Source of the DNA: Porphyridium purpureum
Lineage: Eukaryota
NCBI GenBank assembly: GCA_008690995.1
Contig: VRMN01000004.1
Span: 248,001-312,000 of the forward strand
Direction: 5' to 3'
Length of the DNA: 64,000 nt
Shown: in pieces, positions 9,306 to 59,755 of the stretch
Layout: every line of letters starts with the position of its first letter
How positions within the stretch are numbered: the stretch's first letter is position 1
Translations under genes and position numbers: made by a program
The notes under the pieces: generated by a model
The model's input: only the letters and a program-made list of their open reading frames with translations
The model's database searches: none
Told to the model about the DNA's origin: nothing

Positions 9306-9749
9306 CCTTTCCCTTCACCCACCTACCCACCCTCTCACCCTCCCTCCCTCCCCTCTCCCTCTCTCGCTCTCCCCCTCTCACCCTTCGCGCCGTCCACTTG
9401 TTTGGCCGCCACGCCCAGAAATGCGGCATTACTATGTAATGAGAAAGTCGCCACAGTAGAGGTACAGTGCTGTACTCCTTCGCACATGACAGATGACAGT
9501 GTGATGCATTACATCATAAACTGTACATTTAGTGTAAAGTGCGACCAGAATGGATAGGACCCCCCACAATTTAATACTCAATTTCAGAGTTTTATATTAA
9601 AAATAAAGTGTTTTAGTATGAAAAGGAAAAGAAACGGAAGAAGGGCACGGAAAAAGGACAAAAAAGTGGGTCAAATAGGATAGGACCCCCAACTTTGTGC
9701 GTGCAATTGCGCAGCAAGGCGCAGGCGAAATCGACTCGGATTGCCTCCC

Positions 9750-9983
9750 ACCTATGCACGCTGACGTTGCGCACATCTCCAAATTCGATTTTCCACTGAC
9801 AAATGCAGTATGTTGAAGCTAGCCAGCTCAACAGCGCCTTGCGCAGCAAAAACAGCACTCTTTAGCCGATCCACGGTCGCGTACTGCCTTTGGTCCCCAA
9901 TAATCTTGCGGTCTGTATTCCTCAGACGTTGGAAACCATGCTGAAGTCTGAAAAGTACTCAAACCACTCCATAATATGGACAT
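9750..9983 (-). pseudogene. Tc3-like transposase, C-terminal fragment
   Basis: Minus strand reads HVHIMEWFEYFSDFSMVSNV*GI (degenerate WPxxSPDLNPIENxWG), then after a frameshift RQYATVDRLKSAVFAA...SVENRIWRC. Confidence 0.75.
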
Positions 9984-10155
9984 CAGTCTGTGTCGTTGAA
10001 ACGTTATATACTGTACCTATGTAAGGTGAAAAGTGTACTTACACAAGGCGACTATGTACGGATATAAGTTGTGTAGACATTATATTTATACCATATACAT
10101 GTTCCAGTCTGACTCATAAACGTACATTTACGCCTCTTATACGTACAGTATATCC

Positions 10156-10503
10156 CAAGATTGGGTCATAGGAATGAACGTGGGGGACGAGGTCCAACAC
10201 TGATAAGGGGAGACAGCAAACCGAAATCCACTGCTGAGAAGACAAGACCAAAAGGGTATCCACGAGAAACCTCCTTTAATCCGCGCCCTGATCTCCTCTG
10301 ACTAAAAGCTAACAAAACACGTCTACGGCGAAGCGAAAGGGTGCTGGTTATATACCCGTGCGGCGCCATGGACGGCCGCCGTCGCCGCCCATATTGGTGC
10401 AGTGTGGGCACAGATTGAGGCTGCCGGCTGCTCACTCATCTGCAGCAGTACGACGGAACTGAACGCCCGCTCGATACTGGAGTACAGCTTGACCCCATTC
10501 ACG
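10156..10503 (-). repeat. 3' LTR (348 bp)
   Basis: Direct repeat of 15521-15868, identical by eye; TATATAA on the minus strand. Confidence 0.95.
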
Positions 10504-10514
10504 CGCCCTCTCAA
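10504..10514 (-). other. Polypurine tract
   Basis: Minus strand TTGAGAGGGCG immediately precedes the 3' LTR. Confidence 0.75.
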
Positions 10515-10678
10515 GCTTAATCCATATCGAGCGCAGGCTAAAAGAGATTCATATCAAAAGCCCCCAACAAGGGGGTGTATAGCTAGGACTAGCCATACCA
10601 TCATCATATCCATAACGGGTTGGTTTCACCATACCCGAACATTCATAAGAGGGCGAATTGGTGCTCTGCCCTCACAAC

Positions 10679-13600
10679 CTAACACGACTCCGTGGCCGAA
10701 GGGGAAAGAAGGGATGACGAGAGGCCCCACGCGCGCGCATGGCCGCGGAATACATCGGCGCTCACCGGCTTCGTGAGCGGGTCAGCCATATTGCCCCGTG
10801 TGGGCACGTGGTCAAAGGTCACGAGTGCTTCACGGTAAAGCTCGTGAAGCCAAGCCAGACAAATTTTCTGGGTCTTGCTCGCATGGAGCAGTCCTGGACT
10901 GAATCCCTTCATCACCGCGCCAAGCGCGGTCTCATTATCGCAGCGGATGGTGGCGCGCGGCCATCCCCGGCCCACATCCTCCAGGAAAAGCGCGATGGGA
11001 AACAGCGCGTTCTGCACTGCGCCATGGAGCGCCACCAGCTCTGCTTCGGCTGTCGAGGTCGCAACGCGCCTCTGACGTCTACTGGACCACTCGACAAGGT
11101 GACGGGTATCACCGGACACCAAGAATAAAGCAGTACCACTGGTTGAGCGACCGGGATCCAAATCGGAATCCACATAAGAATGGATCATTATCTGAGCATT
11201 CTCCGCTTGCGGCACCGGATAGCGCAAGCGCACATCTGCGTGCTTGTACAAGTACGCGAGGACCTCGCTGAGTGCGCGTTCTGCATCAGCCGACCAGCGA
11301 TCTGTGTGACGCGCAATCATTGCCACTGCGTGTGCGACATCGGGGCGTGTGGTCCTGGCGAGCCACATGAGCTTGCCCAGGCATGAGCGCACCTCAGACG
11401 AGCAAGAATTTGCTTCTTCGCTCGTCTTGACTCGGGATGAAAGTGGTGTTGCCCTTGCGCGCCCACCTTTGTGGGCCGCAGTGATGTACCTGGCAAATTC
11501 GCAGCTATCAAAAATCCACGCGCCCTCCTCGCGGTACACATTCACGCCGAGGTAGCGGATTGGTTTTGCGCGCGTGCTTTCCGAGATGAGCTGCGCACTC
11601 TTAGTGATGTTGAACATTCTTACTAGCTCACGCATTGCCTCGCTCACCGAGTGTGTAGTGCCAAGGATGGCACCATCGTCCACGTAAAGGACGAGCAAAG
11701 TAAGCGCGCCATTTCGTCTGCGCCAGTAAATGTTCTTGTCCGAAGCCGACTCTTTCCAGTGTGCGGCACATAACTTTTCGCGAGCATAAGCCGAATAATC
11801 GAATCCCGCTCTGGGCAATCCGTAAAGTGCCATCGGTATTGGCACGACGGGGTTTGGAATCGAAGAAATTTTCCGCATATCAGCTCGCGGCAACACAGAA
11901 TCCAAGAACGGCATCAAGGATTTGAAGTACGCAAAGGTCGGACTTCCGAGTAATGGTGCGTGTACATAGGCAGCATCGATGTCAAAGAACATCGCATCTG
12001 CGGCCTCACCATGAGTATGAAGCGCAACCGACACCGCAGCACGAATGCTCGAAAGGCCCGGAGGCCGGTCAAACTGCGGCACTTCGGGCGGGGCGCGCCG
12101 GCCTGTTGCATCAGTGATGTGGCACCCTTGTGCCACAACGCGGCACTTCAGCACGCGATGCTCGGGAGGCATCTCACTGTTCTTAATAGCCATGATTGGC
12201 TTCATGTTCACAAAGCGTGCTTGCTTTGCGCGCGCAGCCTCGTGCTTGCTGACCACCTTATGAAACGGCAGAGCGCCGCTTCCTATAAGTGTTTGCATCT
12301 CCTTCTGAAACGCAATGCGGCCTGGCTTTGTGTGCGCGTGATCGGCAAATGGCACTATCTCGGCTACACCAAGTTCTACAACTTCACCGCTGCAGCTTGC
12401 GGTGCGCCCATGTTGAGCGCCAAGCCCTTCCTCCGTTGTCTCCTGCTGCGCCAGCTGCGCCACGCCTAACACCATCTGCATAGCGCGCGTGTTCCCGGTC
12501 TTGATGCCGCGCCGATGCTCTTTGAGACCCATGGCGCGCTCGCCGAGTAGGCCCATGGCTGCCGCATGAGATCGCAAACCCTTGCTTCCAATGCCGCGCA
12601 GTGACTCACCTCCGCTTTCACCAATCAAGGACCAATTAGGCCCGTGCTTTTCGTATCCTGCGCTGAGCGCGTTGTTCATATCTGCGCTCCAGACGCGGCG
12701 TTCCTTCTTCCTCTGCGGCGGCGAAACAAGAACAACCTCATTGTCTTCTTGCTGGGCTTCAGCACTTTTATCACCGGGCAGACTTGACTGAGTATGCCCC
12801 GATGATCGATTGCCCTCGGATTCGTGCATGCTATCCCGCTCCGGCATTACCCGAGCCATTACACCCTCTTCAGATGGGCGCTCTTTCTTGGGAAATTCGT
12901 TTGCTGATAAAGACCACTCTCCTACCCACCTCGCCGTTGTGGACCGGAGGTCGGCGTAGGGTGCGACAAGAAGGTTAAGGGGTGTTCGCGTTGTTGTTGG
13001 GGTTGGCATGCGTATGCCGATGACGAGCGCCAATGTGCCTGGCGGATCGTACTTTGTACGCTCGGGCGCCAAGACGTACACGCCGCGGCCGAACGGCGGA
13101 AGCTCACGGTTCCAAGCGAACCCGTAGCGAGCCTCATACGGCGTCTTGCCGTCAGCGCCCTCCCACTTGACGTTTCGGGCAGCTGCCCAGTACTGAGCCG
13201 CAAATGCGAACCACGGCGAATCGAGTCCAGCGGCGGCGAGTAATGCGCGAACGCCCGCGTTCAAGTCACGATGCATTCTTTCGTGGATGGCATGCGTATT
13301 GGGACGGTGTGGGAGCCCGACCTCGTGGGCTACCAGGTTACCTTTCAGGGCTGTCTCGAAAGCGCCTTGAAACTCTCCTCCATCATCGGTCTTGACAAGA
13401 CGCGGCCAGCCGCGTCCGCGCTGTATCTCAATCAGCGCCATCAACGTGCTCTCAGATGTTTTGTTCGCAAGCGGCGCGACTACCAACCAAGCGGTTGCCG
13501 CATCACGGTGGGTCATAAGCCAACGTGTTCCACATATGCCCGTCTCGGTTGGATCAACTAAGTCGACCGATACAACATCGTTAAATCCCTCGAATTGGGA

Positions 13601-14500
13601 ATTTTCCTTCTTACGCGGCGCGCGAAGTACTTTCAACTTCGCCGCCTGACAGGCATCACAACTTGCTTTGGCGGGCATGTGCAGCACTCCGTGCTCATCT
13701 TCTGGCACCTCTTCGTTAGCGCGTGGTGCGTGCGCCTTATGCCCGCTTGCGACGGCACACTCAAATGGTTTCTCCGGCTCATCTGCCGGTGCTTCAATTG
13801 CGGCAGCTGGCCCAGGAATGCTTTTCCCAGCAACTTGAATTTTCAATTCATGTGCATGTAGCCAGTCCAAGCCGAGAATTAACTCATGATGCCCTTGATG
13901 CACCCACGCATTTGTGCTCTCATCAGTCGCGCCGGGCGCGACGAGCAGGAATGAGGCTTTGCCATGAATTGGCTCACTGCGCCCATCGGCCAGTCGAATG
14001 CGTGGCCCGTTCGCTCCGCACTTCGTGTACGGCACTCGCAAGCGGCGACACAGAGCTTGCGAAATGAAGGTTGCGGTGGCGCCAGTATCAACAATGGCCT
14101 GAGCCTTGTGCCCGTTGACGAATACTGGCAGTCGAATTAGATCCGAAGCGCCGCTGACGGCGCTGGTTCCAATCTCGTACTCGGCCACACCCAGCTCTTG
14201 CGTGCAATCTGCGGCCCAGTGGCCGCGTCTTCCGCAATTGCGACAAGTATCAGCACCGAGATGATTGCCTATTAGCGGCCTACGGTTTCCCTTTGATTGT
14301 GCCTTCGGCACGTTCTTGCCTTTGTTGTTTCGTCGGCCATACCTCCGACGCGGCCCTTCAGCCGTCCCAAGATCCATCGGCGCGACGCCATCGTTGGAGA
14401 AGGCGGACGCGTGGACGCTCTGCCGATACACGGCATCAATTGCCAGTGCCGCTCGGAGTGCCTCATGGTAGTCGGCGGGCTGCTTCAACAGCACTTGCAC
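10679..14500 (-). CDS. Retrotransposon polyprotein: end of Gag, CCHC knuckle, protease, integrase, Myb-like domain, RT, RNase H
   Basis: CRNCGRRGHWAADC; IVDTGAT...ILGLDWL; HGVLH...CDAC; SVDLVD/KTDDGGEF/IHER; FDIDAAY, LYGLPRAG, YVDD; YVDSD, WSSRRQ, STAEAE, NMADPLTK. Confidence 0.93.
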   Translation of the reverse strand: MQVLLKQPADYHEALRAALAIDAVYRQSVHASAFSNDGVAPMDLGTAEGPRRRYGRRNNKGKNVPKAQSKGNRRPLIGNHLGADTCRNCGRRGHWAADCTQELGVAEYEIGTSAVSGASDLIRLPVFVNGHKAQAIVDTGATATFISQALCRRLRVPYTKCGANGPRIRLADGRSEPIHGKASFLLVAPGATDESTNAWVHQGHHELILGLDWLHAHELKIQVAGKSIPGPAAAIEAPADEPEKPFECAVASGHKAHAPRANEEVPEDEHGVLHMPAKASCDACQAAKLKVLRAPRKKENSQFEGFNDVVSVDLVDPTETGICGTRWLMTHRDAATAWLVVAPLANKTSESTLMALIEIQRGRGWPRLVKTDDGGEFQGAFETALKGNLVAHEVGLPHRPNTHAIHERMHRDLNAGVRALLAAAGLDSPWFAFAAQYWAAARNVKWEGADGKTPYEARYGFAWNRELPPFGRGVYVLAPERTKYDPPGTLALVIGIRMPTPTTTRTPLNLLVAPYADLRSTTARWVGEWSLSANEFPKKERPSEEGVMARVMPERDSMHESEGNRSSGHTQSSLPGDKSAEAQQEDNEVVLVSPPQRKKERRVWSADMNNALSAGYEKHGPNWSLIGESGGESLRGIGSKGLRSHAAAMGLLGERAMGLKEHRRGIKTGNTRAMQMVLGVAQLAQQETTEEGLGAQHGRTASCSGEVVELGVAEIVPFADHAHTKPGRIAFQKEMQTLIGSGALPFHKVVSKHEAARAKQARFVNMKPIMAIKNSEMPPEHRVLKCRVVAQGCHITDATGRRAPPEVPQFDRPPGLSSIRAAVSVALHTHGEAADAMFFDIDAAYVHAPLLGSPTFAYFKSLMPFLDSVLPRADMRKISSIPNPVVPIPMALYGLPRAGFDYSAYAREKLCAAHWKESASDKNIYWRRRNGALTLLVLYVDDGAILGTTHSVSEAMRELVRMFNITKSAQLISESTRAKPIRYLGVNVYREEGAWIFDSCEFARYITAAHKGGRARATPLSSRVKTSEEANSCSSEVRSCLGKLMWLARTTRPDVAHAVAMIARHTDRWSADAERALSEVLAYLYKHADVRLRYPVPQAENAQIMIHSYVDSDLDPGRSTSGTALFLVSGDTRHLVEWSSRRQRRVATSTAEAELVALHGAVQNALFPIALFLEDVGRGWPRATIRCDNETALGAVMKGFSPGLLHASKTQKICLAWLHELYREALVTFDHVPTRGNMADPLTKPVSADVFRGHARAWGLSSSLLSPSATESC

Positions 14501-15244
14501 TTAGATCTTTGCCTGCAAACCGCGCACGAAGCGATCGAGACGTTCCGAATCGCTGACGGACGGAAGGCGAAGTAGGCAATTACCGAAATCGTTTGCGTAC
14601 TCATGCACGCTTCGATTGCGCTGCACGCAGGCAGCGAGTCGGTCACGAGCGATCTGACTTGAAGCAATGGGTTCAAATTCCCTCTTAAAGACGCCAATGA
14701 AGCGGTCGAACCTGATCGGTTTCGGTTCCAGCACGGACCACCATAGCCTCGCGGCTCCGTGAAAGAAAGATGCGGCTACACGCACACATTTCAGCTCCGC
14801 GTCGTCATCCCATGTACGACCGGCAAGCTGGTATTCCTCTCTCAACTGTGAGAGGATGCGATCGTTCGCGGCGTCGCACCACGACGCGACCACAAGCGCG
14901 TCGCGTTCTCCGAGGAAAGCGGGCATGGGAGCGTGCTTGACTTGAGACGTCGCGTCAACGCGCGAGTATGCGTCATTGCGCACGCGGTGCAATTCAGCGG
15001 CGAGCGCTGCGCGCTCTTCCTGCACCTGTCCAATGAGTTCCTCGCGCATGCGCGAAAACTCTTGAGACATGGCCTGTCGCATGAGCTCAATATCGCTCTG
15101 CGCGGCGGCCATCGTCGGCTGATGATGCTGCTGTGCAGCTGCCTGCGCAGCCAGCTCGGCCTGCATGGCCTGCTGCTGCTGGCGAGCTAGCGCCGCGTTG
15201 CGCTCTTGCTCCAGCCGGGTGGGGGTCCTATGACCTGACTCCAT
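14501..15244 (-). CDS. Gag, N-terminal part; in frame with the downstream ORF across a single TAA
   Basis: Retrotransposon-gag pattern ARLWW...F.REFEP....ARDRL....Q..SV.EY...F...LLRLP.....RLDRFVRGL. Confidence 0.85.
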   Translation of the reverse strand: MESGHRTPTRLEQERNAALARQQQQAMQAELAAQAAAQQHHQPTMAAAQSDIELMRQAMSQEFSRMREELIGQVQEERAALAAELHRVRNDAYSRVDATSQVKHAPMPAFLGERDALVVASWCDAANDRILSQLREEYQLAGRTWDDDAELKCVRVAASFFHGAARLWWSVLEPKPIRFDRFIGVFKREFEPIASSQIARDRLAACVQRNRSVHEYANDFGNCLLRLPSVSDSERLDRFVRGLQAKI

Positions 15245-15509
15245 ATGGGAGTAACTTCTGCTCCGTGCCTACTACACGGGCCTACGTGCGATCGTTCCTT
15301 TGCAACGAGCCTCTCGTTCTAGTTGCACGCTACAAGCCTCTTGCTCGTACGTCTGTTTGTGCGCGCCGTGCCTTCTTGCACGCGTCACTCAACGATCACC
15401 GGTGCGGCGAGCTCCTCGCTCGAGCCGTCTTTGCGCAACTGTCGCGTTCGCGCTTCACGCCGTGCCCTTGCACGCGTTACTTTGTTGCAGCTGTGTTGTT
15501 AGCGACCTA

Positions 15510-15520
15510 GGCTCATAACC
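15510..15520 (-). other. Primer-binding site GGTTATGAGCC (internal initiator tRNA-Met fragment type, as in Ty5 and copia)
   Basis: Directly follows the 5' LTR on the minus strand; the same motif occurs at 50821 in the second element. Confidence 0.8.
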
Positions 15521-15868
15521 CAAGATTGGGTCATAGGAATGAACGTGGGGGACGAGGTCCAACACTGATAAGGGGAGACAGCAAACCGAAATCCACTGCT
15601 GAGAAGACAAGACCAAAAGGGTATCCACGAGAAACCTCCTTTAATCCGCGCCCTGATCTCCTCTGACTAAAAGCTAACAAAACACGTCTACGGCGAAGCG
15701 AAAGGGTGCTGGTTATATACCCGTGCGGCGCCATGGACGGCCGCCGTCGCCGCCCATATTGGTGCAGTGTGGGCACAGATTGAGGCTGCCGGCTGCTCAC
15801 TCATCTGCAGCAGTACGACGGAACTGAACGCCCGCTCGATACTGGAGTACAGCTTGACCCCATTCACG
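15521..15868 (-). repeat. 5' LTR (348 bp)
   Basis: Direct repeat of 10156-10503. Confidence 0.95.
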
Positions 15869-16163
15869 TATCCTGCCCTCAAGACATTATATCTGTATAT
15901 TCTACGCCCTACATACGTATTGTATAAATGTGTATTGTTTAGTCATATGTGTACCTTTTTATCATTGGTTCACGGTTTATATTTGTCAAGTATAAGCGTA
16001 CATACATGACTTCTGTATTTACATAAAGGGATATATATGCGTATGGTATATAGTACATGAAAACGTCTAGTATATTTATAGTATATTGATGAAATATATA
16101 CGGACCAACACGGCTTTTAGTGGATTGCTATACTATGACGTATGCACAGAGACTGCAATCGTG

Positions 16164-16715
16164 CGACAAGCACCGAAGAAAACAGACAGGAAGCAGGACA
16201 AACACAGCGAGCGAGAACACAGGCATACGACAAGCACCGAAGAAAACAGACAATACGCAGGACAAACACAGCGAGCGAGAACACAGGCATACGACAAGCA
16301 CCGAAGAAAACAGACAATACGCACGACAAACACAGCGAGCAATAACGCAGTCGTACAACAAGCACCGAAGAAAACAGACAATACGCACGACAAACACAGC
16401 GAGCGAGAACACAGGCATACACAAGCACCGAAGAAAACAGACAATACGCACGACAAACACAGCGAGCAATAACGCAGTCGTACAACAAGCACCGAAGAAA
16501 ACAGACAATACGCACGACAAACACAGCGAGCGAGAACACAGGCATACGACAAGCACCGAAGAAAACAGACAGGAAGCAGGACAAACACAGCGAGCAATAA
16601 CGCAGTCGTACAACAAGCACCGAAGAAAACAGACAATACGCACGACAAACACAGCGAGCGAGAACACAGGCATACGACAAGCACCGAAAGAAACAGACAA
16701 GAAGCACGACAAACA
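16164..16715. repeat. 64-bp tandem array (about 8.6 copies, two alternating 32-bp half-units)
   Basis: CAAGCACCGAAGAAAACAGAC recurs at 16167, 16231, 16295, 16359, 16422, 16486, 16550, 16614 and 16678 (last copy slightly variant). Confidence 0.95.
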
Positions 16716-16868
16716 TGGTACGTGAATAAAAAAATCAAAAGTCAGAGGGTTGTCCGTACGGAAATGCTCGAGCCAAGAGGACTGGTATGGCGTTCCGAAA
16801 CTGATGTGTACCAACGTACCAAACGCGTGACATGCACATTCAGAGATACTTCGAGGTACCTCTGTTCA

Positions 16869-24029: not shown

Positions 24030-27000
24030 TTACGCCCACAACTCTATACCATCGAATATATCGGGTCGTAGAATGAACCACCACCTAGCAGGTACCTGTT
24101 CATCAACACCTGCACGCCCAATACCACAGCGCGAAGCGCATTGAGATGAAGAAGCATACGCTTCACCTGGATCAAGAGCGGTACCGCTATTGTAAGTATC
24201 CAGAAAGGCTGTAATCTTGCAACGGAGCTGCGACGCAAGCACAATTTTGACTTCATCGTCTTCACGTACGTGATCAAAAATGCCTCGTAAGTGTGTACAT
24301 GCTGTCGCGCCACCACGGCTCCGAGGCACACGCTCTACTTTCAAGTGTCGTACGATGGCGATATCCTGTACAGACGGCATACCCTGCACAGGGTCCCGTG
24401 GTAATACTCCTTTCGTCTGGATTGGATGTACATCAACGTCGATTGTCCCAATCAAGACGAGACGGGCATATCGAAGACGCTGACGTACGTCATCCCAATA
24501 CTGAATAAAGTCATACCTTTCCTTGCCGTAGTAGTCCCAGTACGCAACAAAGCGCTCACTCTGCATGTTCGCATGGTTGTGCCGCACGGCGATACGAGGC
24601 GTATAGCACACCTTATACTCTTGCTCGTACGAGTTTTGCATTTCATCCGACATCCATGTGCGCCGACCCTTCTGAACGTGATGCGTAAGTGAGTCCCACA
24701 CCGTGACTGCTTCTTTCATGGTCGATCTACATCCAACTGACGCTGAGACCGTGTGTGTAGTGCTTGGAAACGAAGGCATCGCCGTCACTTGAAAAGACCA
24801 TTCATCTGTCGATCGCGCACGGACACAGGTCCAGGAGTAGACAATCCCTTCCGGCCACGACCCCGTGCATACCACATCTTCCGGTACTGGAGCTGCTCTA
24901 AACTCTAAAGGATGTGTCGGTTCACCGATTCCATGGTCGTGCGACATTGACGGGATGCGCTCTGCCGGATCTAAAAGTAAGCTACTGATGTCTGCAAGAT
25001 CGAATCGCTCATGCTGTTCAAGCATGTATCTATGCGGTACCGCCAGATTTACGCCAGCCACTTTTCTGTGCACCCTTTTGCATATGCGCATGAGAGACTC
25101 GCTTGTACAAGTGTCGTGTAATCGCTTGCGCCCGAACTCCTCCAGATCTTTGCACAGATGCAAGAGCGCATGAAGTTTTGGCGCATCCCAAACAATTCCC
25201 GTCAAGTACTTGAGCTGCTGTATCTTATCCATGAGACTCGATACTAGATCTCTTCCTTCACGTACGTGTGCATCTGTTGGTCGAGCAAGACACATCTTCG
25301 CGTACACGGATAAGGCTTGACAACACGTGATAAGATACACTGCTTTCCAGGCAGGGCCCATGGTCTTGTAATATCCATCGCAGGCGACAGCCACAATGAC
25401 TTGTACAAGTAGTCCTGGCGAGTACTTATTCTCCACCATCTTGGACAACTGCTCGAACGGATTTGGCGTACGTCGGATCGGAATGTATACTCCGGAAGAA
25501 CGTGATAGACGCTCACGATCTTGTACCGTGCTGATTACAACCAAGTACTTGCCCAATGCAGAGTTACGAATGCGTGTAATGTTGTCAGCCGTTCGGCGTC
25601 CACCACTTATCTTTCGGCGTTTCTTTTGTCGTGTGGTACCACCATCATCACCGTCACTCGTTTCCGAGGAGGTGATCTCGTCACTGTCAATTTCCATATC
25701 TTGCCCGAACCCAGACGCGTCGAGTTGCGCCACGGAAGCTGTTCCGCGTATGCGTCTTTCTTGTGCGTACCGGTCCAGAATGTACAAGGCTATGTTTGCC
25801 AGTTGACGGAGTATTCCAAGCTTGAAGCCATGCATCCAGTCCACACCAACGAGTGCAAAGAGACCGCGTTTATCCCAACGATTGAGGTACCTCGCTTTTG
25901 CACCTGGAATATGGCGTATATTATATTTTGCACGCTGCCTGGCAGCACCTCCGCCCGACTGCTCAGCTATCGCAAACATGGGCTCTTCTTCGCGGTACTC
26001 AAAGCTCGTGTACGCGTTGAATGCCTCAGATCCAGGAACAAGACATACTTGACAGGGCCGCTCCTGAGTCATACGCGAGTTCAACGTAACACTGATGGTC
26101 GCAACCATGGGCATATCGCACGCGAATCTGAACAGAACTGGGAGCCATTTGATCATGGACCCATTGCACCGTACGGCCAAAGCGTGACGCTGCAAAGCGG
26201 TCGGCTCCGACAATGTCATAAATGGATCAAGCAAGAACTGTAGCACACTGTGCATGACACAAGGAGTATCATCCGTCGCTTTGCCCGCATCCGGTAGAAC
26301 TGGCGCGTACGCGATCACACGCGGCTCAAGAGGTCCATCGTGCATGTACCTATGCACGAGGTACAACGAGATGGGAGTGAGCGAATGAATTCCGTTTGCT
26401 CGCATCTGAGCACCATCAATGCAAACCATGACAGGCACCAGCATGATATCGGGCGGTACCGCTTCACGTATACGGCGCAAGTGCGCAGCATTCTGCGCAT
26501 GCGTTAATACAGTCTCGCCGCGCTCATTTGTTATGTGTGCAACCTCAAATGCTTGGTCGCCATAGCGATGCAATGCAACAACAAGCTCTCGCGCAATCAA
26601 AACCATGGGGTCGCGGTACCGCAAATCCACGCACAGTGTCTTTCCTGCACATGCAACGGAAAGTTGTTTGATGTGCACCGGCATCTTCGCGAGTCCAACG
26701 CGCTGCAAAATATTTCCGCTCAAAAATCCTTTCCTGTGTAGTGGCCGGTCACGTACATGAGTCTGACTGCGAGTGAACCAGGTCTTCAAGGCCGCTCTAC
26801 AGCGGGCACTCAGCACGTACTTGCACATGATATGCTCGAACTCCAACTCAATAAGAGGTATCCCACTGATTTCTTTTTCCGCGTACGCGGACAACAGTGC
26901 CTGTATACTCTCCGTTGTCTGCTGTGCCGAGTACCCCACGGCATCCGCGGCTAACATGGGCATCGCTTCACGCACATGAGGTGCCTCTTCTTGCGTGCCA

Positions 27001-27317
27001 GCAGCGATTTCCTGTACACATTCCGAGTCCTGATCAGCCCAATATTCCACCGCGTGCGCGAAGCCTGCGTCCGTGTCTTGGCTCGCTCCACTCAGAGTCG
27101 ATTGTCCGTCCGACTCAGTGCACTCCGCGACCGCGTTTGCGGAAGCAACGACGGGGTGCCCCATGTCAATAGCGCTCTGACCATCAGGGCATGCCACGAT
27201 TCGTACCGGAACCCTGCAATGGCCCACGTGCGCTGCAAGACTCTGACGGATGGTAAATCCGAGCTGCAGCATGGACTTCCCACAAATTGGGCAGTGCTCC
27301 TGCATTTCTCCAGTCAT
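24030..27317 (-). CDS. Plavaka/CACTA-like DDE transposase with N-terminal zinc finger
   Basis: CPICG...H..HC; YRDPM; PVMVCIDG...SLTPISL; CDMP; PCQVC; DWMHGFKLG; PKLHALLH; FG...DTCTSE; RYDFI. Confidence 0.8.
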   Translation of the reverse strand: MTGEMQEHCPICGKSMLQLGFTIRQSLAAHVGHCRVPVRIVACPDGQSAIDMGHPVVASANAVAECTESDGQSTLSGASQDTDAGFAHAVEYWADQDSECVQEIAAGTQEEAPHVREAMPMLAADAVGYSAQQTTESIQALLSAYAEKEISGIPLIELEFEHIMCKYVLSARCRAALKTWFTRSQTHVRDRPLHRKGFLSGNILQRVGLAKMPVHIKQLSVACAGKTLCVDLRYRDPMVLIARELVVALHRYGDQAFEVAHITNERGETVLTHAQNAAHLRRIREAVPPDIMLVPVMVCIDGAQMRANGIHSLTPISLYLVHRYMHDGPLEPRVIAYAPVLPDAGKATDDTPCVMHSVLQFLLDPFMTLSEPTALQRHALAVRCNGSMIKWLPVLFRFACDMPMVATISVTLNSRMTQERPCQVCLVPGSEAFNAYTSFEYREEEPMFAIAEQSGGGAARQRAKYNIRHIPGAKARYLNRWDKRGLFALVGVDWMHGFKLGILRQLANIALYILDRYAQERRIRGTASVAQLDASGFGQDMEIDSDEITSSETSDGDDGGTTRQKKRRKISGGRRTADNITRIRNSALGKYLVVISTVQDRERLSRSSGVYIPIRRTPNPFEQLSKMVENKYSPGLLVQVIVAVACDGYYKTMGPAWKAVYLITCCQALSVYAKMCLARPTDAHVREGRDLVSSLMDKIQQLKYLTGIVWDAPKLHALLHLCKDLEEFGRKRLHDTCTSESLMRICKRVHRKVAGVNLAVPHRYMLEQHERFDLADISSLLLDPAERIPSMSHDHGIGEPTHPLEFRAAPVPEDVVCTGSWPEGIVYSWTCVRARSTDEWSFQVTAMPSFPSTTHTVSASVGCRSTMKEAVTVWDSLTHHVQKGRRTWMSDEMQNSYEQEYKVCYTPRIAVRHNHANMQSERFVAYWDYYGKERYDFIQYWDDVRQRLRYARLVLIGTIDVDVHPIQTKGVLPRDPVQGMPSVQDIAIVRHLKVERVPRSRGGATACTHLRGIFDHVREDDEVKIVLASQLRCKITAFLDTYNSGTALDPGEAYASSSQCASRCGIGRAGVDEQVPARWWFILRPDIFDGIELWA

Positions 27318-27549
27318 TGCAGTGCTGCTTCACTTGGATGTTGCGTCTGTGTCTGGATGCTCTTACGCAATTAGAACGTGAACACGTGATCCACAGAATC
27401 GGTACCGGAACGAGTTGACGAATGCCGACAGATTCTTTAACCACACCAAATGCCACGGCGCCAACTTTGTTTCGCACGTCAAACCTTCCTAGACCTTTCC
27501 CGGAAACCATCTATAAGCGTTCGTCCTTTCAAATTTCAAGTTTAAGTGC

Positions 27550-44426: not shown

Positions 44427-44774
44427 CCTTCACCAACCGCACCCACACGATCTTGTTCTCCTCTCTACCACCCCTTTGCACCCACCACCTCATCTCGCTT
44501 CCACCTCAACCCGTTACTTCACCGTTATTCTGAGCCCAACCCTGGGTACAGTAGTAATCCTAGTCCGCAACGGTTGGGTACAGTTTGATTTAAACATTGA
44601 ATATTAAATAATGGTTTCTTTTAATATTCTAACTGTACTGAAAGTACAGCGAATGGACGAGAGCGAAAATTGAAGAAAAATAAATTTGGGGGCGCGAGGC
44701 GGAGACGGGGGGTGGGGATGAGAGGACGGGCCCGGAGAGAAGGCGCGCGCGTGAATGTAGTGGGAGAATGAAGC

Positions 44775-45755
44775 GTGATGATGCAGATGGTGATAGGGAG
44801 GCGGCACGCGCTGGGCGCTACGGTCCTACAGCCATGTCGAAGATTTTGGCCGGTGATGGGATGTACGGAGAAGAAGCACGACATGTGGCATGGGAGTAAC
44901 GCGCCTGGGCTGATTGCACGATGGAGTAGTCAAGACGCAGACGCCGGGGAGCCAGGAAATGTGGTCTGGCCATTGCTGCCGTTTCCCTTGAGCCGAGCTA
45001 GAGATATGCCGGATGATTATCCTGATGGCGTGTACTTGTGGAAGACCAAGAAAGTCGTCTGGAATGGTAGGAATTGCGTGCGATGTTGCAATTACGCCGG
45101 CTGCGTGAAGAAAGCTGCAACAGCCAGCAAGCTGTGCAAAATGCATGGCGGTGGTCTCCGCTGCGAACGCGATGGCTGCTCGAAAGTTGCACAGGGAAAC
45201 ACCAAGCTATGCGTTGCACACGGCGGCGGTTACCGCTGCCAGCATCCCGGCTGCTCAAAAGCTGCACAGGGAACCACCAAGTTTTGCGTGGCGCACGGCG
45301 GTGGTTGCCGCTGCGAGTATAGCGGCTGCTTGCGAGCTACACAGGGAGCCTCCAAGTTTTGCCTGAGACACGGCGGCGGTCGCCGCTGCGAGCACGTTGG
45401 CTGCTCAAAAGCTGCACGGGGAGCCACCAAGCTGTGCGTAATGCATGGCGGCGGTCTCCGCTGCGAGCGCGATGGCTGCTCGAAAGTTGCACAGGGAACC
45501 ACCAAGCTGTGCGTTGCACACGGCGGCGGTTACCGCTGCGAGCATCCCGGCTGCACAAAAGCTGCACAGGGAGCCACCAAGCTGTGTACTGCACATGGTG
45601 GCGATCGCCGATGCCAGCATCCCGGCTGCTCAAACGCTGCTCGAGCTTCCCCCTTGTTTTGCGCTCGGCACGCGAATAGGACAGACATCGCTGTTGCAGT
45701 TGGTGAAGCAGCCCAGTCAAATCTTTTGAATAACTCAGAAACGTCCACACCTTGA
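44775..45755 (+). CDS. Protein with 8 tandem Cx4C...Cx2HGGG (WRKY19-like) zinc fingers; start uncertain
   Basis: 25-aa repeats such as RCERDGCSKVAQGTTKLCVAHGGG. Confidence 0.85.
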   Translation: MMMQMVIGRRHALGATVLQPCRRFWPVMGCTEKKHDMWHGSNAPGLIARWSSQDADAGEPGNVVWPLLPFPLSRARDMPDDYPDGVYLWKTKKVVWNGRNCVRCCNYAGCVKKAATASKLCKMHGGGLRCERDGCSKVAQGNTKLCVAHGGGYRCQHPGCSKAAQGTTKFCVAHGGGCRCEYSGCLRATQGASKFCLRHGGGRRCEHVGCSKAARGATKLCVMHGGGLRCERDGCSKVAQGTTKLCVAHGGGYRCEHPGCTKAAQGATKLCTAHGGDRRCQHPGCSNAARASPLFCARHANRTDIAVAVGEAAQSNLLNNSETSTP

Positions 45756-50365: not shown

Positions 50366-50599
50366 CCTCTCTCTCCTCCCTCTCTCTCTCTCTCTCCCCG
50401 TCCTATCTTTCTCTGCCTTCACGCTCTTTCTCCGTCTTGCTCTTTTTCCTTCCTTTCCTTTGACCGAAGGTACAGCGAAAGTACTGTTACGTTCTGTTAA
50501 AGTACAGTCCACAGTCCAGTCCCGTGGAATATTGTCATCCCTCTCTGCCTGCCTGATGACGTGATGAGGAGTCATCAAATGCTTAATGATGACAACTCT

Positions 50600-53500
50600 C
50601 CGTTGGTTGGTGACCGTAATGGTTAACCACAGTAGTATATCATTAGAGTGTGAGAGACGGCCGACGAGTCGGCGCTCTGTCTTCTTTTGAGGTAAGAGCT
50701 AGGTTGTGTTAAGGAGTAAAGTCGTCTTGTTGTGGACCTCTTGCTTCAGCTAGCCACCAGTAGGTTACTATTGGTACACGTTTGGTATACGCGTGCTTCA
50801 CGAAGACGCTATCATCAAAGGGTTATGAGCCCAGCCTTTGCGCTGTGGTGTTTCCCTCATCTTTCTTCTTCTTGCTTGCTTGACTAACCACCTATTGTGG
50901 TTGCGTTTCTATCATTCGGTCATTCCCCAACTCTACCCTCGATCACGCTTTGGAAAAGCGACTGTGGCAGCGCGACAGCCAAGACGCTGATCGGCGCCGC
51001 GAACATCGAGAAGGAAAAAAGAGGCGCTCGAAGCGCAACTGGTGAGCGCGACGCGCCCAGTGTTTGGTCATGGAATATGACATGGATAGGGCTGCGGGTG
51101 CTAGTACCCCAGCAACACCGTCGCCGGCACGCGGTGGTGCAAACGCCTCGGCAACCCGCCTTGGCGCGGCAGCAAGTGCGCGGCGCGAGTCCGCGCGCGA
51201 GGAAACGAAACGAGAGATGGCGGCGATGCTGAATGCGGCATACGCCCAAATGCATCGCCAACTCTCGGAGGAATTCGGCGCCAAGATGGCGACCGAACTG
51301 AATACCCGGACGGCGATTGTTCAGAGTGAGCTCGCCGAGCTGCGGAGCGAGAACGTTCGTCTGAGGGCGCTTCGCGATGGATCCGGTGGAAGTGGCGCTT
51401 TGCCGAGCTGCATGCGCCCTGCGGCCATGCTGTACTATGGCGGCGAGCGATCCACTGCGGCCATTATGACCTGGACGGCAGCAGCGCGTTCGCGGGTGTA
51501 CAACCCGGCGCGCTCGGATTGGCGGTCGCAGGGCCGTCTATGGACGGAAACCGAGGAAGAGGAAGCAGTGTCGACGCTTTCGACTCACCTCTTCGGATTG
51601 GCGCAACTCTGGTACCAGGCATTACAACCTGATCAGAGACCCACCTCGGTAGAAGAGTTTCTGCTCGCGCTTCAGCGGCGCTTCGAGCCAAAAGAAACAG
51701 AAAATGACGTGCGGGATGAACTGCAAAAGATGAAGCAGGGTGCAATGAGTGTCCAAGATTTTGAATCTGCATTTAGTGAAGTTTGTCTGCGTATACCAAA
51801 TTTGGTAGACAAAGATAAACTTCACTATTTTACAGAATCTCTTGACACTTCTATTGCCACTCACGTAGCGCTTCACTTCCCTCCCACCTATGACGACGCT
51901 TTGCGTTTGGCTCTAGTTGCCGACAAAGTCATATTTAAGCGTGGTCGAGACCAGCAGCCCATCACAGCACGCACGTACCCGTCAGCCATGCAGCCTGCAT
52001 ACCACCCCCAGATGAACTATAACCAGCATGGTCCGGTGCCAATGGACTTGGGCACCGCCAGCGGCAGCCGCGCACGGGTGCACGAACGAGGATACAACGA
52101 CTTCCAGCGGGATCGCTCGAACGAGTATCAACAGCAACAGCATGACCAATGGTCACCAGCTGGACCGCACCGGAACCTGCGTGCGAATCATGCAGAGCAG
52201 TACGCGCAGAGCCGCGCGGACGGACGAGACGGCGGCTGGCGAGAGCCGAGCACGCACGGTTGGAACCGTGGTGGCGGCCAGAACGACGCGCGTGGGCGCG
52301 GACAGAAGCGTGGCGCACCGCAACGAGGCGGTGCCAGTAGACCACGACCGCGACAGACGCCGAAGTCGCAACAAGATGGCAAGAAGAGTAATCAGCGTGG
52401 GCGCTATTACTGCCATCGGTGCTCCGTGTGGGGGCCAGCGACGCACAACTGTGCAGATAGGCGCGATGATCGCGATGCCAATCTCGGCGGAGCCGAGTTG
52501 ATGACCGCCAGTGCGGGCAAAGGGTTGCTCAAGGTGAATGCTTGGGTGAACGGCCGGGCGATGAAAGCAGTCATCGATACCGGCGCAACGCACACCTTTC
52601 TGAGCGAGAGCGCATGCGCGATGGTGCGAGTGCGCACAAATAGCACCGCGAATGCCTTGACCATTCGATTGGCAGACGGCACGCAGTGCATGTCTCGCGG
52701 GCGCGCGACAGTGAATCTGGCGGTGCTGGATTCAGCAGAGAAGCAGCAGGACGTGGTCGTGTACAATGGCCACAATGACCTCGTGATCGGTCTCGATTGG
52801 CTTCGAACCAACCGCTTCGAAATGACCATCGGCGGTCACAGTCTTGGCACAGCCGAGGCTGAGCATGTAGAGCAGGACCATTGCGTTCTGCACATGCCGT
52901 CGCGCGACACGTGCGGAATATGCAGCGCGGCAAAGCTGCGGCGCGCGCGTGCTGTGAGGCGAGACGACTCGGTTGGCAAAGAGCGCGGACGAGCGCGCGA
53001 GTTCAACGACGTGGTGTCGATTGACATTGTGGATCCCGGACTGGCAGCCGTGGAGGGCAGCAGGTGGCTGCTCACTCACCTCGACGAAGCCACTGGGTGG
53101 TTCTCAGCAATTGGGCTGGCGGACAAGTCCGCCGCTGAGTGCATTCGCGGGTTGACGGAGCTGCAGCGCGGACGTGGTGATTGGCCACGAGTGTTGCGGT
53201 GTGACGAGGGCCGCGAGTTCATGGGCGAATTCGACGGATTCATCGCGGAAAAGGGCGTGAAGAAAGTCACTGGTGTACCGTACCGGGCGAACACGCACGC
53301 GACGCATGAACGCAAGCACGCAGACTTGAACGGAGCAGTGCGAGCACTGCTGATGCAGTCTGGTTTGCCGACCGCGTGGTATCCGTTCGCCGCCGCCTAC
53401 TTTTGCCTGGCCAGAAACCTTGCCTGGCGCGGCGCAAAGCAGGAGCAGACCAGCTTCGAGCAACGGCTCGGTCTGACATGGCACAAGCCCATCCCTGGAT

Positions 53501-55521
53501 TCGGGAGCGGCATTCTCATATACGATGAGAGCCGCGGCAAATTTGAGCCGAAAGGCTTGCCTGCAATCGTCGTTGGGTTCACGGCACCGAGGCCAAATGA
53601 CCGGCGGCAGCCGATAAACCTGCTCGCCCTGCCCATTGCCGACTTGCGGCCATCTGCGATCAGGAAGGTCGGCGAATGGAAGCCACTTCCCGACAGGTGG
53701 CCATTGCGACGTTTGGCACTGCGGCCTCCGGATGAGGCCATTGCGACGGGTGATCAATGGTCGCGAGCACGCGACAATGCACCGGACCGTGCATTCTGCA
53801 CACAGTGCAAGAAAATAGTCGGTGGGAGCACCGAATGCGAGAAATGCATTTTGGGTCCGGCGCCCAACCGACGTCACACTGGTGACGGCGCATGCAGGCA
53901 AATGCACTGCCAGTGCAACCGAGACGAGCACGGAAAGCTCGCGTCGCGTGCACAGTATCGGCGCATTGAGCTGCCGTGGAGTCCGGCCGAGGACATTGCC
54001 ATATCCGAAGGCATTGCCCGTTTTGGTGAGGACTGGCTTGCCATCGCGGGTAGGCCAGCATTCTTCATGCGCGGCCGCAAACCAGCCGGCTTGCGCGCGC
54101 GCGCAGCGGAACTGGGTGTGCTTCCAGTGCACGCAGCAGCAGCGAGCGACGCGACGCGGAACGACGCGACGCGAGCAGAGAGTAGCAGCAACGCAACGTA
54201 CACAAGCGCGGCGACAGGAGGACCAGAGGACGAAGCGGCAGGTCTGGGGGTGGCAGAAGTTGTGGCCACAGCGGTGGCGATGGCCACGCCCGCCGGCCGC
54301 CATGCATTAGCATCCGAGCTTCGTGCGCTCACCAGCACCGGCGCTCTGCCTTTCCGCCGCACGATGGACAAGGCAGTGGCGGCGCGCGTTCCGAACGCGC
54401 AATTTGTTAAGTTGAAGCTCCTCTTCAACAAGAAGAATTCAGAAATGCCTCCGTCTTTCCACAAGACGAAGTGCCGCATCGTCGCGCAAGGATGCGTCGT
54501 GCTGGACGCCGATGGGCGTCGCGCGCGCGAAGAACCGTATCCTTTTGATCGCCCACCAGGTTTGCTGGCGATCCGCGCCTCGATGAGCATGGCGCTCATG
54601 CTCCATGGACCATCCGCCGACGGCGCCTTTTTCGATGTAACGTGTGCCTACCCCAGTGCACCATTGGGCGGCCGTCCGACATTCGGATATCTGCGCGACC
54701 TGGTCCCGGTCGTGAAGGGTCTAGTCAGCGAAGCTGACTACAGGAAGATGGCCGCATGCAGCGAGCCTGTCGTCGAGCTACCGCAGGCTCTGTACGGAAT
54801 GAAAAGGAGCGGCAGCGACTTCAGCCACGACGCTCGCGAGCGTGTCCGGCGGCTTGGATGGCAAGAATCCAACGCGGACAAGAACCAGTACTGGCGCCGC
54901 GACGCGAACGGCAGCATGCTCACGCTGAGCATGTACGTCGACGATGGCGCACTCTTCGGCAATGCGGATGCGGTACGAGTGGCGGTCAAACAACTGAAGA
55001 CCGTTTTCAGAATCGACCAGAAGGTCGAATACATTGCAGACTCGGCGCGTACACGCCCTATCAAGTATCTCGGCATGCATATCTATCGCGACGGCGGCCG
55101 ATGGATATTGGATTCGGGGGTGTACGCCACCCATGTGGCGAACGGCCACACCGCGGACAACTTGCGCGTGCGCAGCACGCCACTCAGCGAGCGGGTCGAC
55201 GACAATGGACCCGGCGGGCGCGCGTGCCCGACGAACAAGCGAACAGTCATTGGCCAACTGCTGTGGCTCAGCCGAACCACGCGAGCAGACATCGCTTATG
55301 CCACGGCGCATGTGGCGCGTTATGTCGACCGGTGGGGGCCAAGCGCGGATCGCGCGCTCGACGAGATCGTCGGGTATCTGAAGAAGCATGCGGACGTCTG
55401 TCTGCAATACGACATACCCGCGACAGGCAGTCGCGACGTTCGGTTGCACGCGTGGGCTGATGCCGACTTTTCGGCACCGTCATCCACGAGCGGCGCCGTG
55501 CTCTTCATATCGAATGGCAGA
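50600..55521 (+). mobile_element. Second LTR retrotransposon of the same family, interrupted in RNase H; left limit of the 5' LTR approximate
   Basis: PBS GGTTATGAGCCCAG at 50821; polyprotein collinear with the first element; no 3' LTR in the window. Confidence 0.85.
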
Positions 55522-55536
55522 CAGTCCGTGTGCTAA
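51070..55536 (+). CDS. Single-ORF Gag-PR-IN-(Cys cluster)-Myb-like-RT-RNase H polyprotein, truncated at the C-terminus
   Basis: PVPMDLG; CHRC....HNC; VIDTGAT...IGLDWL; HCVLH...CGIC; SIDIVD/RCDEGREF/THER; LYGMKRSG; YVDD; WADAD..STSG, then an abrupt end. Confidence 0.92.
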   Translation: MEYDMDRAAGASTPATPSPARGGANASATRLGAAASARRESAREETKREMAAMLNAAYAQMHRQLSEEFGAKMATELNTRTAIVQSELAELRSENVRLRALRDGSGGSGALPSCMRPAAMLYYGGERSTAAIMTWTAAARSRVYNPARSDWRSQGRLWTETEEEEAVSTLSTHLFGLAQLWYQALQPDQRPTSVEEFLLALQRRFEPKETENDVRDELQKMKQGAMSVQDFESAFSEVCLRIPNLVDKDKLHYFTESLDTSIATHVALHFPPTYDDALRLALVADKVIFKRGRDQQPITARTYPSAMQPAYHPQMNYNQHGPVPMDLGTASGSRARVHERGYNDFQRDRSNEYQQQQHDQWSPAGPHRNLRANHAEQYAQSRADGRDGGWREPSTHGWNRGGGQNDARGRGQKRGAPQRGGASRPRPRQTPKSQQDGKKSNQRGRYYCHRCSVWGPATHNCADRRDDRDANLGGAELMTASAGKGLLKVNAWVNGRAMKAVIDTGATHTFLSESACAMVRVRTNSTANALTIRLADGTQCMSRGRATVNLAVLDSAEKQQDVVVYNGHNDLVIGLDWLRTNRFEMTIGGHSLGTAEAEHVEQDHCVLHMPSRDTCGICSAAKLRRARAVRRDDSVGKERGRAREFNDVVSIDIVDPGLAAVEGSRWLLTHLDEATGWFSAIGLADKSAAECIRGLTELQRGRGDWPRVLRCDEGREFMGEFDGFIAEKGVKKVTGVPYRANTHATHERKHADLNGAVRALLMQSGLPTAWYPFAAAYFCLARNLAWRGAKQEQTSFEQRLGLTWHKPIPGFGSGILIYDESRGKFEPKGLPAIVVGFTAPRPNDRRQPINLLALPIADLRPSAIRKVGEWKPLPDRWPLRRLALRPPDEAIATGDQWSRARDNAPDRAFCTQCKKIVGGSTECEKCILGPAPNRRHTGDGACRQMHCQCNRDEHGKLASRAQYRRIELPWSPAEDIAISEGIARFGEDWLAIAGRPAFFMRGRKPAGLRARAAELGVLPVHAAAASDATRNDATRAESSSNATYTSAATGGPEDEAAGLGVAEVVATAVAMATPAGRHALASELRALTSTGALPFRRTMDKAVAARVPNAQFVKLKLLFNKKNSEMPPSFHKTKCRIVAQGCVVLDADGRRAREEPYPFDRPPGLLAIRASMSMALMLHGPSADGAFFDVTCAYPSAPLGGRPTFGYLRDLVPVVKGLVSEADYRKMAACSEPVVELPQALYGMKRSGSDFSHDARERVRRLGWQESNADKNQYWRRDANGSMLTLSMYVDDGALFGNADAVRVAVKQLKTVFRIDQKVEYIADSARTRPIKYLGMHIYRDGGRWILDSGVYATHVANGHTADNLRVRSTPLSERVDDNGPGGRACPTNKRTVIGQLLWLSRTTRADIAYATAHVARYVDRWGPSADRALDEIVGYLKKHADVCLQYDIPATGSRDVRLHAWADADFSAPSSTSGAVLFISNGRQSVC

Positions 55537-58800: not shown

Positions 58801-59755
58801 CCGATATGCATTGCTTAGATCTGTGGGTGAAAAGAAGGGTCGAAGCTCGCTTAACCAGACCCGCAGCTGATTCGTTGATACTTGTTTGCATCACAGAGAA
58901 GGCCTTCTCAAGTAAAGATGCATCGCAGGTCGATAGATTCCTTCTCAAATCCGTAAAGGCACGCCTGATTATTCGAGTAATATACCGAAGAGTCGTGCGA
59001 GTAGTGATGCGTAACAGCTGCATCTCCATCGACTTTAGTTCAAGTGCTTCGCGAGTGGAAATGGCGTGCTTGTGCATAAACATCTCCTGTTCACTTTTAA
59101 ACCTTAGAACTTCGACTGCATCGTCGATGTCAATGTTCTCCGATGAGCCTATGCCAGTCAACGTGCGCACGTACTTCGAGATGCTGTCGTCGCGGTGTTG
59201 TAGGCGCTGGCGTAAAGTCTTCTGGTCGAGTAATCTCTCAAAACGCTTTGCATAACGGGTCACAAGCGTTTCGACGTCAATCTCTCGACTAGGATACGCA
59301 TCGCTCATCTGTGCTGCATCGTGTCCCATACGTTCTGCTTCGTTGGCTTCATCATCGTCTGCCGCGTCATTCTCTAGAGCAAGATCATCATCCGATTCAA
59401 TCTGCTCTTCTGGGTCCACGAAGTCATCACCGCCATCATTGTCGCTGTCCCGTGCGCTGTCGTCATGATTGTCTATGCCGGCACTGACGTCAAAGTCAAT
59501 TCCACTGCGTGTATCGTCATCGCATGAGCCACCGTACACAGCAGTCGACCGTCGAAGATTCGCGTATGGAATGCGCCCTGTGCGTACACGCAGTCTGCAG
59601 CACAGTTTGTGTTCTCGCATGACTTGGACCCGCGCAGTGTAAGATAAACCTTGTCCTTCAGGCGGTGAAAAATCGCAGTTGACACCATCGCATTGTAATC
59701 TTTTCTCTCGACGACGATGCCACGGCTTGTGGGCAAGGCTCTCACGACTATCCAT
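55841..59755 (-). CDS. Plavaka/CACTA-like DDE transposase (ORF open to 59836; first ATG 59755)
   Basis: FREPM; PLQIYADE...TMTPLKI; MDMP; PCHQC; DGLHG; PKIHALSH; FG...DTTDGE; RWDFVE, all collinear with 24030-27317. Confidence 0.8.
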   Translation of the reverse strand: MDSRESLAHKPWHRRREKRLQCDGVNCDFSPPEGQGLSYTARVQVMREHKLCCRLRVRTGRIPYANLRRSTAVYGGSCDDDTRSGIDFDVSAGIDNHDDSARDSDNDGGDDFVDPEEQIESDDDLALENDAADDDEANEAERMGHDAAQMSDAYPSREIDVETLVTRYAKRFERLLDQKTLRQRLQHRDDSISKYVRTLTGIGSSENIDIDDAVEVLRFKSEQEMFMHKHAISTREALELKSMEMQLLRITTRTTLRYITRIIRRAFTDLRRNLSTCDASLLEKAFSVMQTSINESAAGLVKRASTLLFTHRSKQCISDIIGNTVIDGQEAVIEYGAGKTLHGKILPRNVVQKIRFREPMELAVNSVVSIIREYGLDALKINLFEDQQRKSLVFPQDGNLCVNAARRIAFEVRQKYGPDPPEAVLLPLQIYADEAHMTQNGRHTMTPLKIRIVHRRMFCSDAHREPHVVAYLPAVDTECVARAFGASQNLHINAKLARRELESSMYHAIMSKTFYDTLAANKHGIPVTWQQRRLLFFPIVYKLSMDMPMMSKCSFTKASFVSGGRAQKMPCHQCMVQAPQSSIHTLSTPAAPHQTENDEFWVTRRPLQYRSEKKIEHLLTQHLSEWGASMRKAHSLQFIGEHAAIGWNRFDENDDKDFNELAAGYEEHIRLLNRGRFQLTGIDGLHGFLAFWFRGITVAGLKALLSKPNVTHRVANVVFELTEAQERAKQYSKHGEEEDAIGAMASLDRSEDTCASAGESNSEHGSESNSECASDIDGPSQSGQASPAKKRKTASAPPSGTRFSHSSAHGRALPLKTATPKHKGSATDQLRGIIDSAAGKAWSRIATNIMNEASFRRHAVYTRIRSSNFLLDLTKLAEQSYSLGHLLQMVVLIQQEDILEDHARIAFTNLAIRCIQLYGVLYLRVIPRDLLIRIPSLTREVQSRLRIFTQRINLPWNAPKIHALSHFGDNLADFGPMKFWDTTDGEKSFQVDKVWFKSLVGSDTWKPHESMLRRAAKHQLASFSNRWLWQLTRDAYSNEGQQSDVRTFTNTAPNENTANQRHPWYRHRGSSIHFSSSLFGVWRDACTVWTYTRENGFRSALEWQPQIWNPYASRTSNSTNSNAERVALWARMDSALKRFAMNKFRAEATHGSVVLEAFRQMQLKHRRQTVECIVAHPDHYKNPRWDFVEYSKHSTHPDQYAYGKCILIARITINTDEHNETFDVAVIQDFEGHDGESSKSQCASKCMHLEPVFHHQRLQSDSVQVIDATMITGRVTAFQDTSQKLSRWYYFVNPNTFEGVQAYN

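Follow-up and report, generated by a model that had tools for sequence, protein, structure and literature searches.

Porphyridium LTR retrotransposons with a Tbf1/TRF-like Myb domain at the integrase-reverse transcriptase junction, a candidate reader of insertion sites

Elements of the Ty1/Copia superfamily are expected to have LTRs with TG...CA ends, and in hemivirus-type priming (e.g., Ty5 and copia) the primer-binding site (PBS) is complementary to an internal half of the initiator tRNA-Met. Tf1 belongs to the Ty3/gypsy elements. A copia-like element with a gypsy-like integrase has reportedly been found in Porphyra yezoensis by Peddigari et al. in 2008. In Ty1 and Ty5, the parts responsible for targeting (through AC40 and Sir4, respectively) lie at the integrase's C-terminal end (excerpts of PMC5911963), and a chromodomain occupies the integrase C terminus in CoDi-A Copia elements (excerpts of PMC2774666). 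R2 and R4/Dong carry an N-terminal Myb domain, accompanied in R2 by zinc fingers, that is reported to direct site-specific insertion (excerpts of PMC7998251).

Two retrotransposons of mixed architecture

The window, i.e., the whole 64,000-nucleotide stretch of Porphyridium purpureum DNA analyzed here, is gene dense and holds two LTR retrotransposons. Element 1 (family P0004/P0025; 10156..15868, minus strand) is full length, as delimited by its repeats and by an empty-site joint; its neighbors are a 5MP/W2-domain gene on one side and an unannotated ORF on the other. Its 5' LTR (348 bp; 15521..15868, minus strand) ends in CG...TG in the element sense and is identical to the 3' LTR (10156..10503, minus strand), a single mismatch falling outside the LTR. 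The PBS, GGTTATGAGCC (15510..15520, minus strand), lies directly behind the 5' LTR, and a Gag-PR-IN-RT-RH frame spans 10679..15244 (minus strand) with a stop at 14501-14503. A 5-bp target-site duplication (10151-10155 = 15869-15873) flanks the element. Contigs of all three DNA runs and nine RNA reads contain a joint from 10150 to 15869 with five shared letters, which establishes that the site also occurs unoccupied and that 5 bp were duplicated. The insertion of element 1 is recent.

The stop at 14501-14503 is absent from the sister protein P0025 and from contigs of three runs, which read through at this place, and on these grounds we discarded the idea that a stop codon is read through from gag into pol. 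Four differences from all DNA contigs, the stop codon included, fall within 35 bp (14476-14510), and this cluster is either a private patch or an assembly error. One RNA run, of which about 20% was covered, contained low-level reads of element 1, increasing towards the 3' end and mostly oriented as sense transcription would give in a stranded library. Public runs contain other insertions, absent from the window, at 10096-10099 and at about 15961-15967; the former, with inverted ends starting CAG and at a TA site, is presumably Tc1/mariner-like. The intergenic stretch of element 1 thus takes further insertions and is a general insertion hot spot. Nearby lie an expressed, high-depth repeat fragment (9700-9983), from which 123 RNA reads continue into other sequence at 9983, and a tandem array with a 64-bp unit (16100-16740), about 230 bp from element 1.

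Element 2 (family P0002, 16 members) lies upstream of a WDR26-like gene. Its 5' LTR (298 bp; 50523..50820, plus strand) ends in CG...AG, and in four of four runs both of its borders (50523 and 50820) show a step in depth together with loose ends. The same PBS follows (50821-50831, plus strand), and the Gag-PR-IN-RT frame (51070..55521, plus strand) ends within RNase H; past this break, neither a 3' LTR nor the rest of the frame was found within the window. A Cys/His module (CxxC..CxxC..H..C..CxC; 53797..53916, plus strand), a predicted zinc finger, is present in element 2 but not in element 1. It had no Pfam family and no named match in the ESM Atlas, and its pattern recurs in about 25 of 150 relatives, mostly Myb-less and including metagenomic and protist-transcriptome sources. 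Just beyond the break lies a long ORF (55841-59872, minus strand) that is 23% identical over about 1,050 aa to another at 24030-27329 (minus strand); neither has a Pfam match, and both look like transposases of the Plavaka type. A further ORF (44772-45755, plus strand) contains 75-bp repeats encoding WRKY19-type zinc fingers. The earlier note on this DNA had regarded element 2 as a second copy of element 1; their polyproteins are 40% identical at the amino acid level, and the two therefore represent different families.

Both elements have the order PR-IN-RT-RH in one frame, as in Ty1/Copia, and the only model matching their RT is RVT_2 (E values of 0.0027 and 4.9e-6 for the window copies, under the cut-off, with relatives above it). 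The 5-bp duplication, measured for element 1 alone, also agrees with Ty1/Copia. The Gag (Retrotrans_gag/Ty3_capsid) and protease (gag-asp_proteas) are gypsy-type by Pfam, which gave no Copia-type Gag or protease match (Retrotran_gag_2, Pol_BBD) in the window elements. Neither element has TG...CA ends; a variant LTR end in two runs would read CGTGA...TCACG. In an RT tree (FastTree; 135 RT/RH rows, omitting near-identical copies and tandem and fragmentary rows, and without named reference elements), the elements belong to a branch of 87 rows that is separate from the 48 rows of standard Copia elements. The PBS, an 11-mer common to both elements and immediately behind each LTR, may correspond to the half-tRNA(iMet) priming site of Ty5/copia. 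No tRNA gene was found in the window, and a literature search gave no paper confirming a half-tRNA(iMet) site. Excerpts of PMC5445492 assign to the GalEa clade the PBS TGGTAGCAGAGC and the RT motif KARLVA; here, in contrast, the PBS is GGTTATGAGCC and the RT motif reads KCRV/IVA, so that both GalEa features are missing.

Four relatives (P0182, P0184, P0042, and P0044) join a classical Copia integrase to the divergent RT branch, and their 5' halves have likely been swapped. In P0182 and P0184, the Gag, protease, and integrase are all classical Copia types, the RT falls in the elements' own branch, and a Myb segment occupies the same junction. With this mixture, either the Myb moved along with the RT in a swap of 5' halves or it was captured more than once. 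A related Copia-order polyprotein, P0048, ends in an AAA_28 NTPase-like domain. The Copia-order lineage with gypsy-type Gag and protease and unusual LTR ends is little described.

A divergent Myb segment between integrase and reverse transcriptase

The Myb peptides that the earlier note had placed between integrase and RT are in frame in both elements. In element 1, the peptide (12700-12563, minus strand) lies in the pol frame (14500-10679), and the domain (12545..12700, minus strand) separates the RT start, at about 12373, from the integrase region, whose core is at about 13693-13094. In element 2, the peptide (about 53971-54114, plus strand) lies in the ORF at 51046-55536, and the domain (53968..54126, plus strand) stands just downstream of the Cys/His module. 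Of the Myb pattern originally read from both segments, the first two Trp residues are kept, and the third Trp and the RT..L part are lost; the third-Trp position is occupied by Ala, as in Tbf1.

Pfam Myb_DNA-binding matched element 2 with 21.6 bits (E = 2.4e-4) and element 1 with 13.9 bits (E = 0.06), both below the 24.4-bit gathering cut-off and spanning helices 1 and 2 only, and matched P0194 with 23 bits. In a wider alignment, nine of ten members matched PF00249 at E ≤ 1 (best E, 5.5e-7). Myb/SANT chains accounted for 42 of the 43 PDB matches of a three-member profile at E ≤ 10, and the best alignment of a 14-member profile was to Schizosaccharomyces pombe Tbf1, across all three helices (E = 4.7e-7). 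Helix 3 has the element consensus lrsrA against LKDKA in Tbf1, with both basic positions and the Ala kept and the Asp lost; the LKDK(W/A) core of the Tbf1/TRF telobox Myb is not preserved, the elements reading V/L-R-S/A-K/H/R. For P0194, the most canonical member (17-member cluster), human TRF1 was the first match (E = 4.6e-4), and its domain lies near Myb clusters at 0.87 in the ESM Atlas, which serves as a lead only. NCBIfam gave no Myb-class match for the domain, and an assignment to the SHAQKYF type, hinted at by "RSHA," is for this reason unsupported.

An AlphaFold model built on the 14-member alignment has three helices (12-25, 29-35, and 45-55; mean pLDDT, 77.6), as a Myb assignment had predicted; an earlier fold from three sequences had a pLDDT of 54 and no useful Foldseek match. 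In a broad structural comparison, the top places went to TBF1 (Z, 7.3; rmsd, 3.7; 63 aligned), TRF1 (7.2; 2.5; 51), and S. pombe Tbf1 (7.0; 2.5; 56), tied at middling scores of a size (near 7) common among small helical models; SANT domains had Z scores of 5 to 6.4. The Foldseek list consisted mostly of Myb/SANT chains, none at E ≤ 0.001. The TRF-like type is borne out by these comparisons, in which Tbf1 and TRF1 come first by both profile and structure. Judged from profiles and a predicted fold, the segment is a Myb domain that has diverged but most resembles those of fungal Tbf1 and TRF1. A histone-binding SANT function appears less likely, since helix 3 retains two basic positions of Tbf1.

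Conservation of the domain amid unconserved linkers also held: mean identity is 32% for the Myb, a figure lowered by a misaligned helix 3 in one family, and 12% and 15% for the linkers, compared with 48% for the integrase core and 44% for the RT (21 pairs, 7 families). In the survey of retention suggested at the outset, the domain was found in 14 of the 17 Porphyridium-labelled clusters (it is absent from P0030, P0046, and P0055), and none of the 7 relatives whose sources (Logan, JGI, ENA, and MMETSP) are unlabelled has it; these 24 are the clusters whose source was looked up, a minority of the 150 representatives. Among all 150, which came from an exhaustive search, the three-member profile detected the segment in 9 (one partial), and wider profiles detected it in 12, one of these profiles being circular for members of its own alignment. 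A 27-row RT tree distributes the domain over three supported subclades and requires at least four changes of state, gains and losses not being distinguishable there, and related elements without it include P0028, P0030, P0046, and P0190. Some copies are distorted, with an insertion in P0029 and loss of the first Trp in P0089, and some segments are not net basic. The domain accompanies two unrelated integrase types. A word-limited Myb-profile search for a host donor returned 12 matches, 10 to Porphyridium elements and the rest to two double-Myb proteins (one named fungal); among shorter proteins, the same kind of search gave one element fragment only, and neither search turned up a donor.

Insertion sites and the GTACAGT motif

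Besides the window copies, further flanks were taken from loose ends at LTR edges in public runs. The motif GTACAGT lies within 30 bp of the element in seven of the eight readable genomic flanks, representing seven of seven sites, among the rows listed. Measured from the LTR end on either strand, it stands at 7 to 13 bp on the left of element 1 (10143..10149, plus strand), with none on the right, at 13 to 19 bp in an RNA-read flank, and at 7 to 13 bp in a variant-LTR flank. On the left of element 2, it stands at 15 to 21 bp (50502..50508, plus strand), and three new flanks of this family have it at 21 to 27, 20 to 26, and 20 to 26 bp. If a 5-bp duplication is assumed at every site, the duplication center is 16.5, 18.5, 18.5, and 19.5 bp from the GTAC center at the four sites of the element 2 family and 8.5, 8.5, and 11.5 bp from it at the three sites of the element 1 family and one variant-LTR relative taken together. 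The spacing looks family specific.

Several rows required separate treatment. A blended row (two X4 records; agreement, 0.62) can be read as a known flank mixed with a second, motif-less one; as it probably holds a motif-less flank, a cautious count is seven of eight sites. An X4/X5 row before the LTR also lacks the motif and was taken for internal sequence and not counted, because a single X5 contig shows no duplication shared with the opposite flank, and adapter-like loose ends in X3 were left out. The background, computed from the single 64-kb window with ORFs as gene borders, is 3.1% per 30-bp flank for intergenic DNA, 4.7% for promoter-proximal DNA, and at most about 7% for AT-rich intergenic DNA. 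GTACAGT was chosen post hoc from the first flanks and the window, and the choice was put on record only after the three later flanks of the element 2 family had been read; by hand calculation at 7%, the chance for those later flanks is about 3e-4 for three of three or about 1e-3 for three of four.

The window contains 20 occurrences of GTACAGT against 3.9 expected; 17 are intergenic, most of them 80 to 230 bp upstream of an ORF, and the motif is the top intergenic 7-mer after poly-A. Examples are at 9462, 29135, 29145, and 44546-44638. It is absent inside both elements. The heptamer is a candidate for a promoter motif in general use in Porphyridium. TTAGGG-type sites are typical of Tbf1/TRF Mybs, and GTACAGT is unlike them. 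Telomere targeting was rejected for the window copies, both of which lie between genes, with CCCTAAA absent from the window; the readable flanks are not telomeric arrays, and the excerpts of PMC3622300 do not identify a Porphyridium telomere repeat. The domain had been proposed to direct insertion to particular DNA or chromatin, and the motif shared at short, apparently family-specific distances from seven sites lends indirect support to such a targeting role; the bias may come from the Myb or from a host factor.

Candidate mechanism and comparison with known systems

We propose, with a probability of roughly 0.45, that the Myb forms the predicted C-terminal tip of the integrase, where it would likely bind GTACAGT in promoter regions and steer insertion into intergenic DNA. 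The starting point is the conserved segment, predicted to form a three-helix Myb-type domain, found between integrase and RT in most Porphyridium families. A conserved hydrophobic strand opens the RT alignment just downstream of the Myb; were the protease to cut there, between integrase and RT, the Myb would stay on the integrase. Helix 3 would then read GTACAGT, with avidity added by a multimeric intasome, and the geometry of the linker, with or without the Cys/His module, may fix the family-specific distance, placing integration one to two helical turns from the motif. In the small sample of sites at hand, insertions appear to adjoin GTACAGT, an intergenic motif that stands mostly 80 to 230 bp upstream of ORFs. 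Targeting of this kind would spare coding sequence in a gene-dense genome, and keeping insertions out of coding sequence could account for the retention of the domain. The elements likely acquired it by capture of a Tbf1/TRF-type factor from a host.

The same sites might be chosen by a host factor at GTACAGT that acts as a tether for the integrase, the part played by Sap1 in the case of Tf1; the Myb would then be a protein-contact or helper module or have no part in the bias. Relative to the Sap1 motif, Tf1 insertions cluster at -9 and +19 (excerpts of PMC5741268), distances much like those found here, and GTACAGT behaves as a host promoter element in its excess (20 against 3.9) and its intergenic placement (17 occurrences). 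Moreover, helix 3 differs between families sharing the motif. Tethering leaves unexplained, however, a Tbf1-type domain whose basic recognition positions are kept across three RT subclades, and a bound protein would crowd the sites 1 bp from the motif (two of seven); we regard this explanation as credible but doubtful.

Open chromatin alone would not be expected to yield offsets of 20, 20, and 21 bp, and promoter-proximal and AT-rich backgrounds reach just 5 to 7% per flank. Both observations speak against the idea that the Myb is functional without reading the motif, binding instead nucleosomes or histones in the manner of SANT domains, or the element's own cDNA or LTR, while the link to the motif arises only because insertions enter, or persist in, promoter DNA that is open. 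SANT domains do share the fold (Z, 5 to 6.4), the element 1 region is a general insertion hot spot, and in a compact genome selection alone clears insertions from genes. The best matches, however, are the DNA-binding Tbf1 and TRF1 rather than SANT domains, and GTACAGT is missing from both elements, which makes this explanation unlikely. It is very unlikely, in our view, that the domain was captured a single time, has since lost its function, and is decaying as a passenger. Such a passenger could account for two window copies under the Pfam cut-off, for absence from 3 of 17 Porphyridium clusters, and for the distortions in P0029 and P0089; it fits poorly with a domain two to three times better conserved than its linkers in families whose RTs are only 30 to 50% identical and with a confident three-helix model built on the elements' own alignment.

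Returning to direct reading of the motif by the Myb, the fuller account is put forward tentatively, at somewhat less than an even chance: the integrase would carry its own sequence-specific DNA-binding domain, derived from a Tbf1-type promoter factor, that reads a host motif directly at a linker-set distance and is portable, together with the RT, between gypsy- and Copia-type Gag-IN halves. If true, LTR elements would have a targeting route that is new for them and that parallels the one of the non-LTR elements R2 and R4, and sequence-directed integrases would have a model from nature. The proposal lends itself to testing: the alga's genome is public, Myb-bearing families occur side by side with Myb-less ones, and the insertions, which are recent, vary from run to run. 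A literature search (titles and starts of abstracts) found no Myb in an LTR-retrotransposon integrase, no report of these Porphyridium families, and no GTACAGT promoter motif in algae; genome papers or repeat databases may already annotate the elements.

The segment shares with the Myb domains of Tbf1 and TRF1 (S. pombe Tbf1, 8ynu/6k5u; TBF1, 8x6d; human TRF1, 1w0t) the fold, two Trp residues, a long loop between helices 2 and 3, and two basic helix 3 positions, and differs in lying within a retrotransposon polyprotein and in having GTACAGT, not a telomeric repeat, as its candidate site. By its title, the Porphyra yezoensis report concerns a similar case, a red-algal Copia-order element with gypsy-like parts. 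Like the modules of Ty1, Ty5, and the chromoviruses and CoDi-A, the Myb would be an accessory part at the integrase C terminus of an LTR element. The partners of those modules are host proteins or chromatin marks, through which the LTR-element targeting modules in the excerpts of the papers cited here also work, whereas the Myb has a DNA-binding fold; the chromodomain characteristic of CoDi-A had no Pfam match at E ≤ 1 in the window elements. With Tf1 and Sap1, the Porphyridium elements have in common promoter insertions at set distances from a DNA motif, but the reader there is a host protein, and here the element encodes the candidate reader. An element-encoded Myb is shared with R2 and R4/Dong, which, in contrast, are non-LTR, target-primed elements with a REL endonuclease, without an integrase, and with the Myb at the N terminus.
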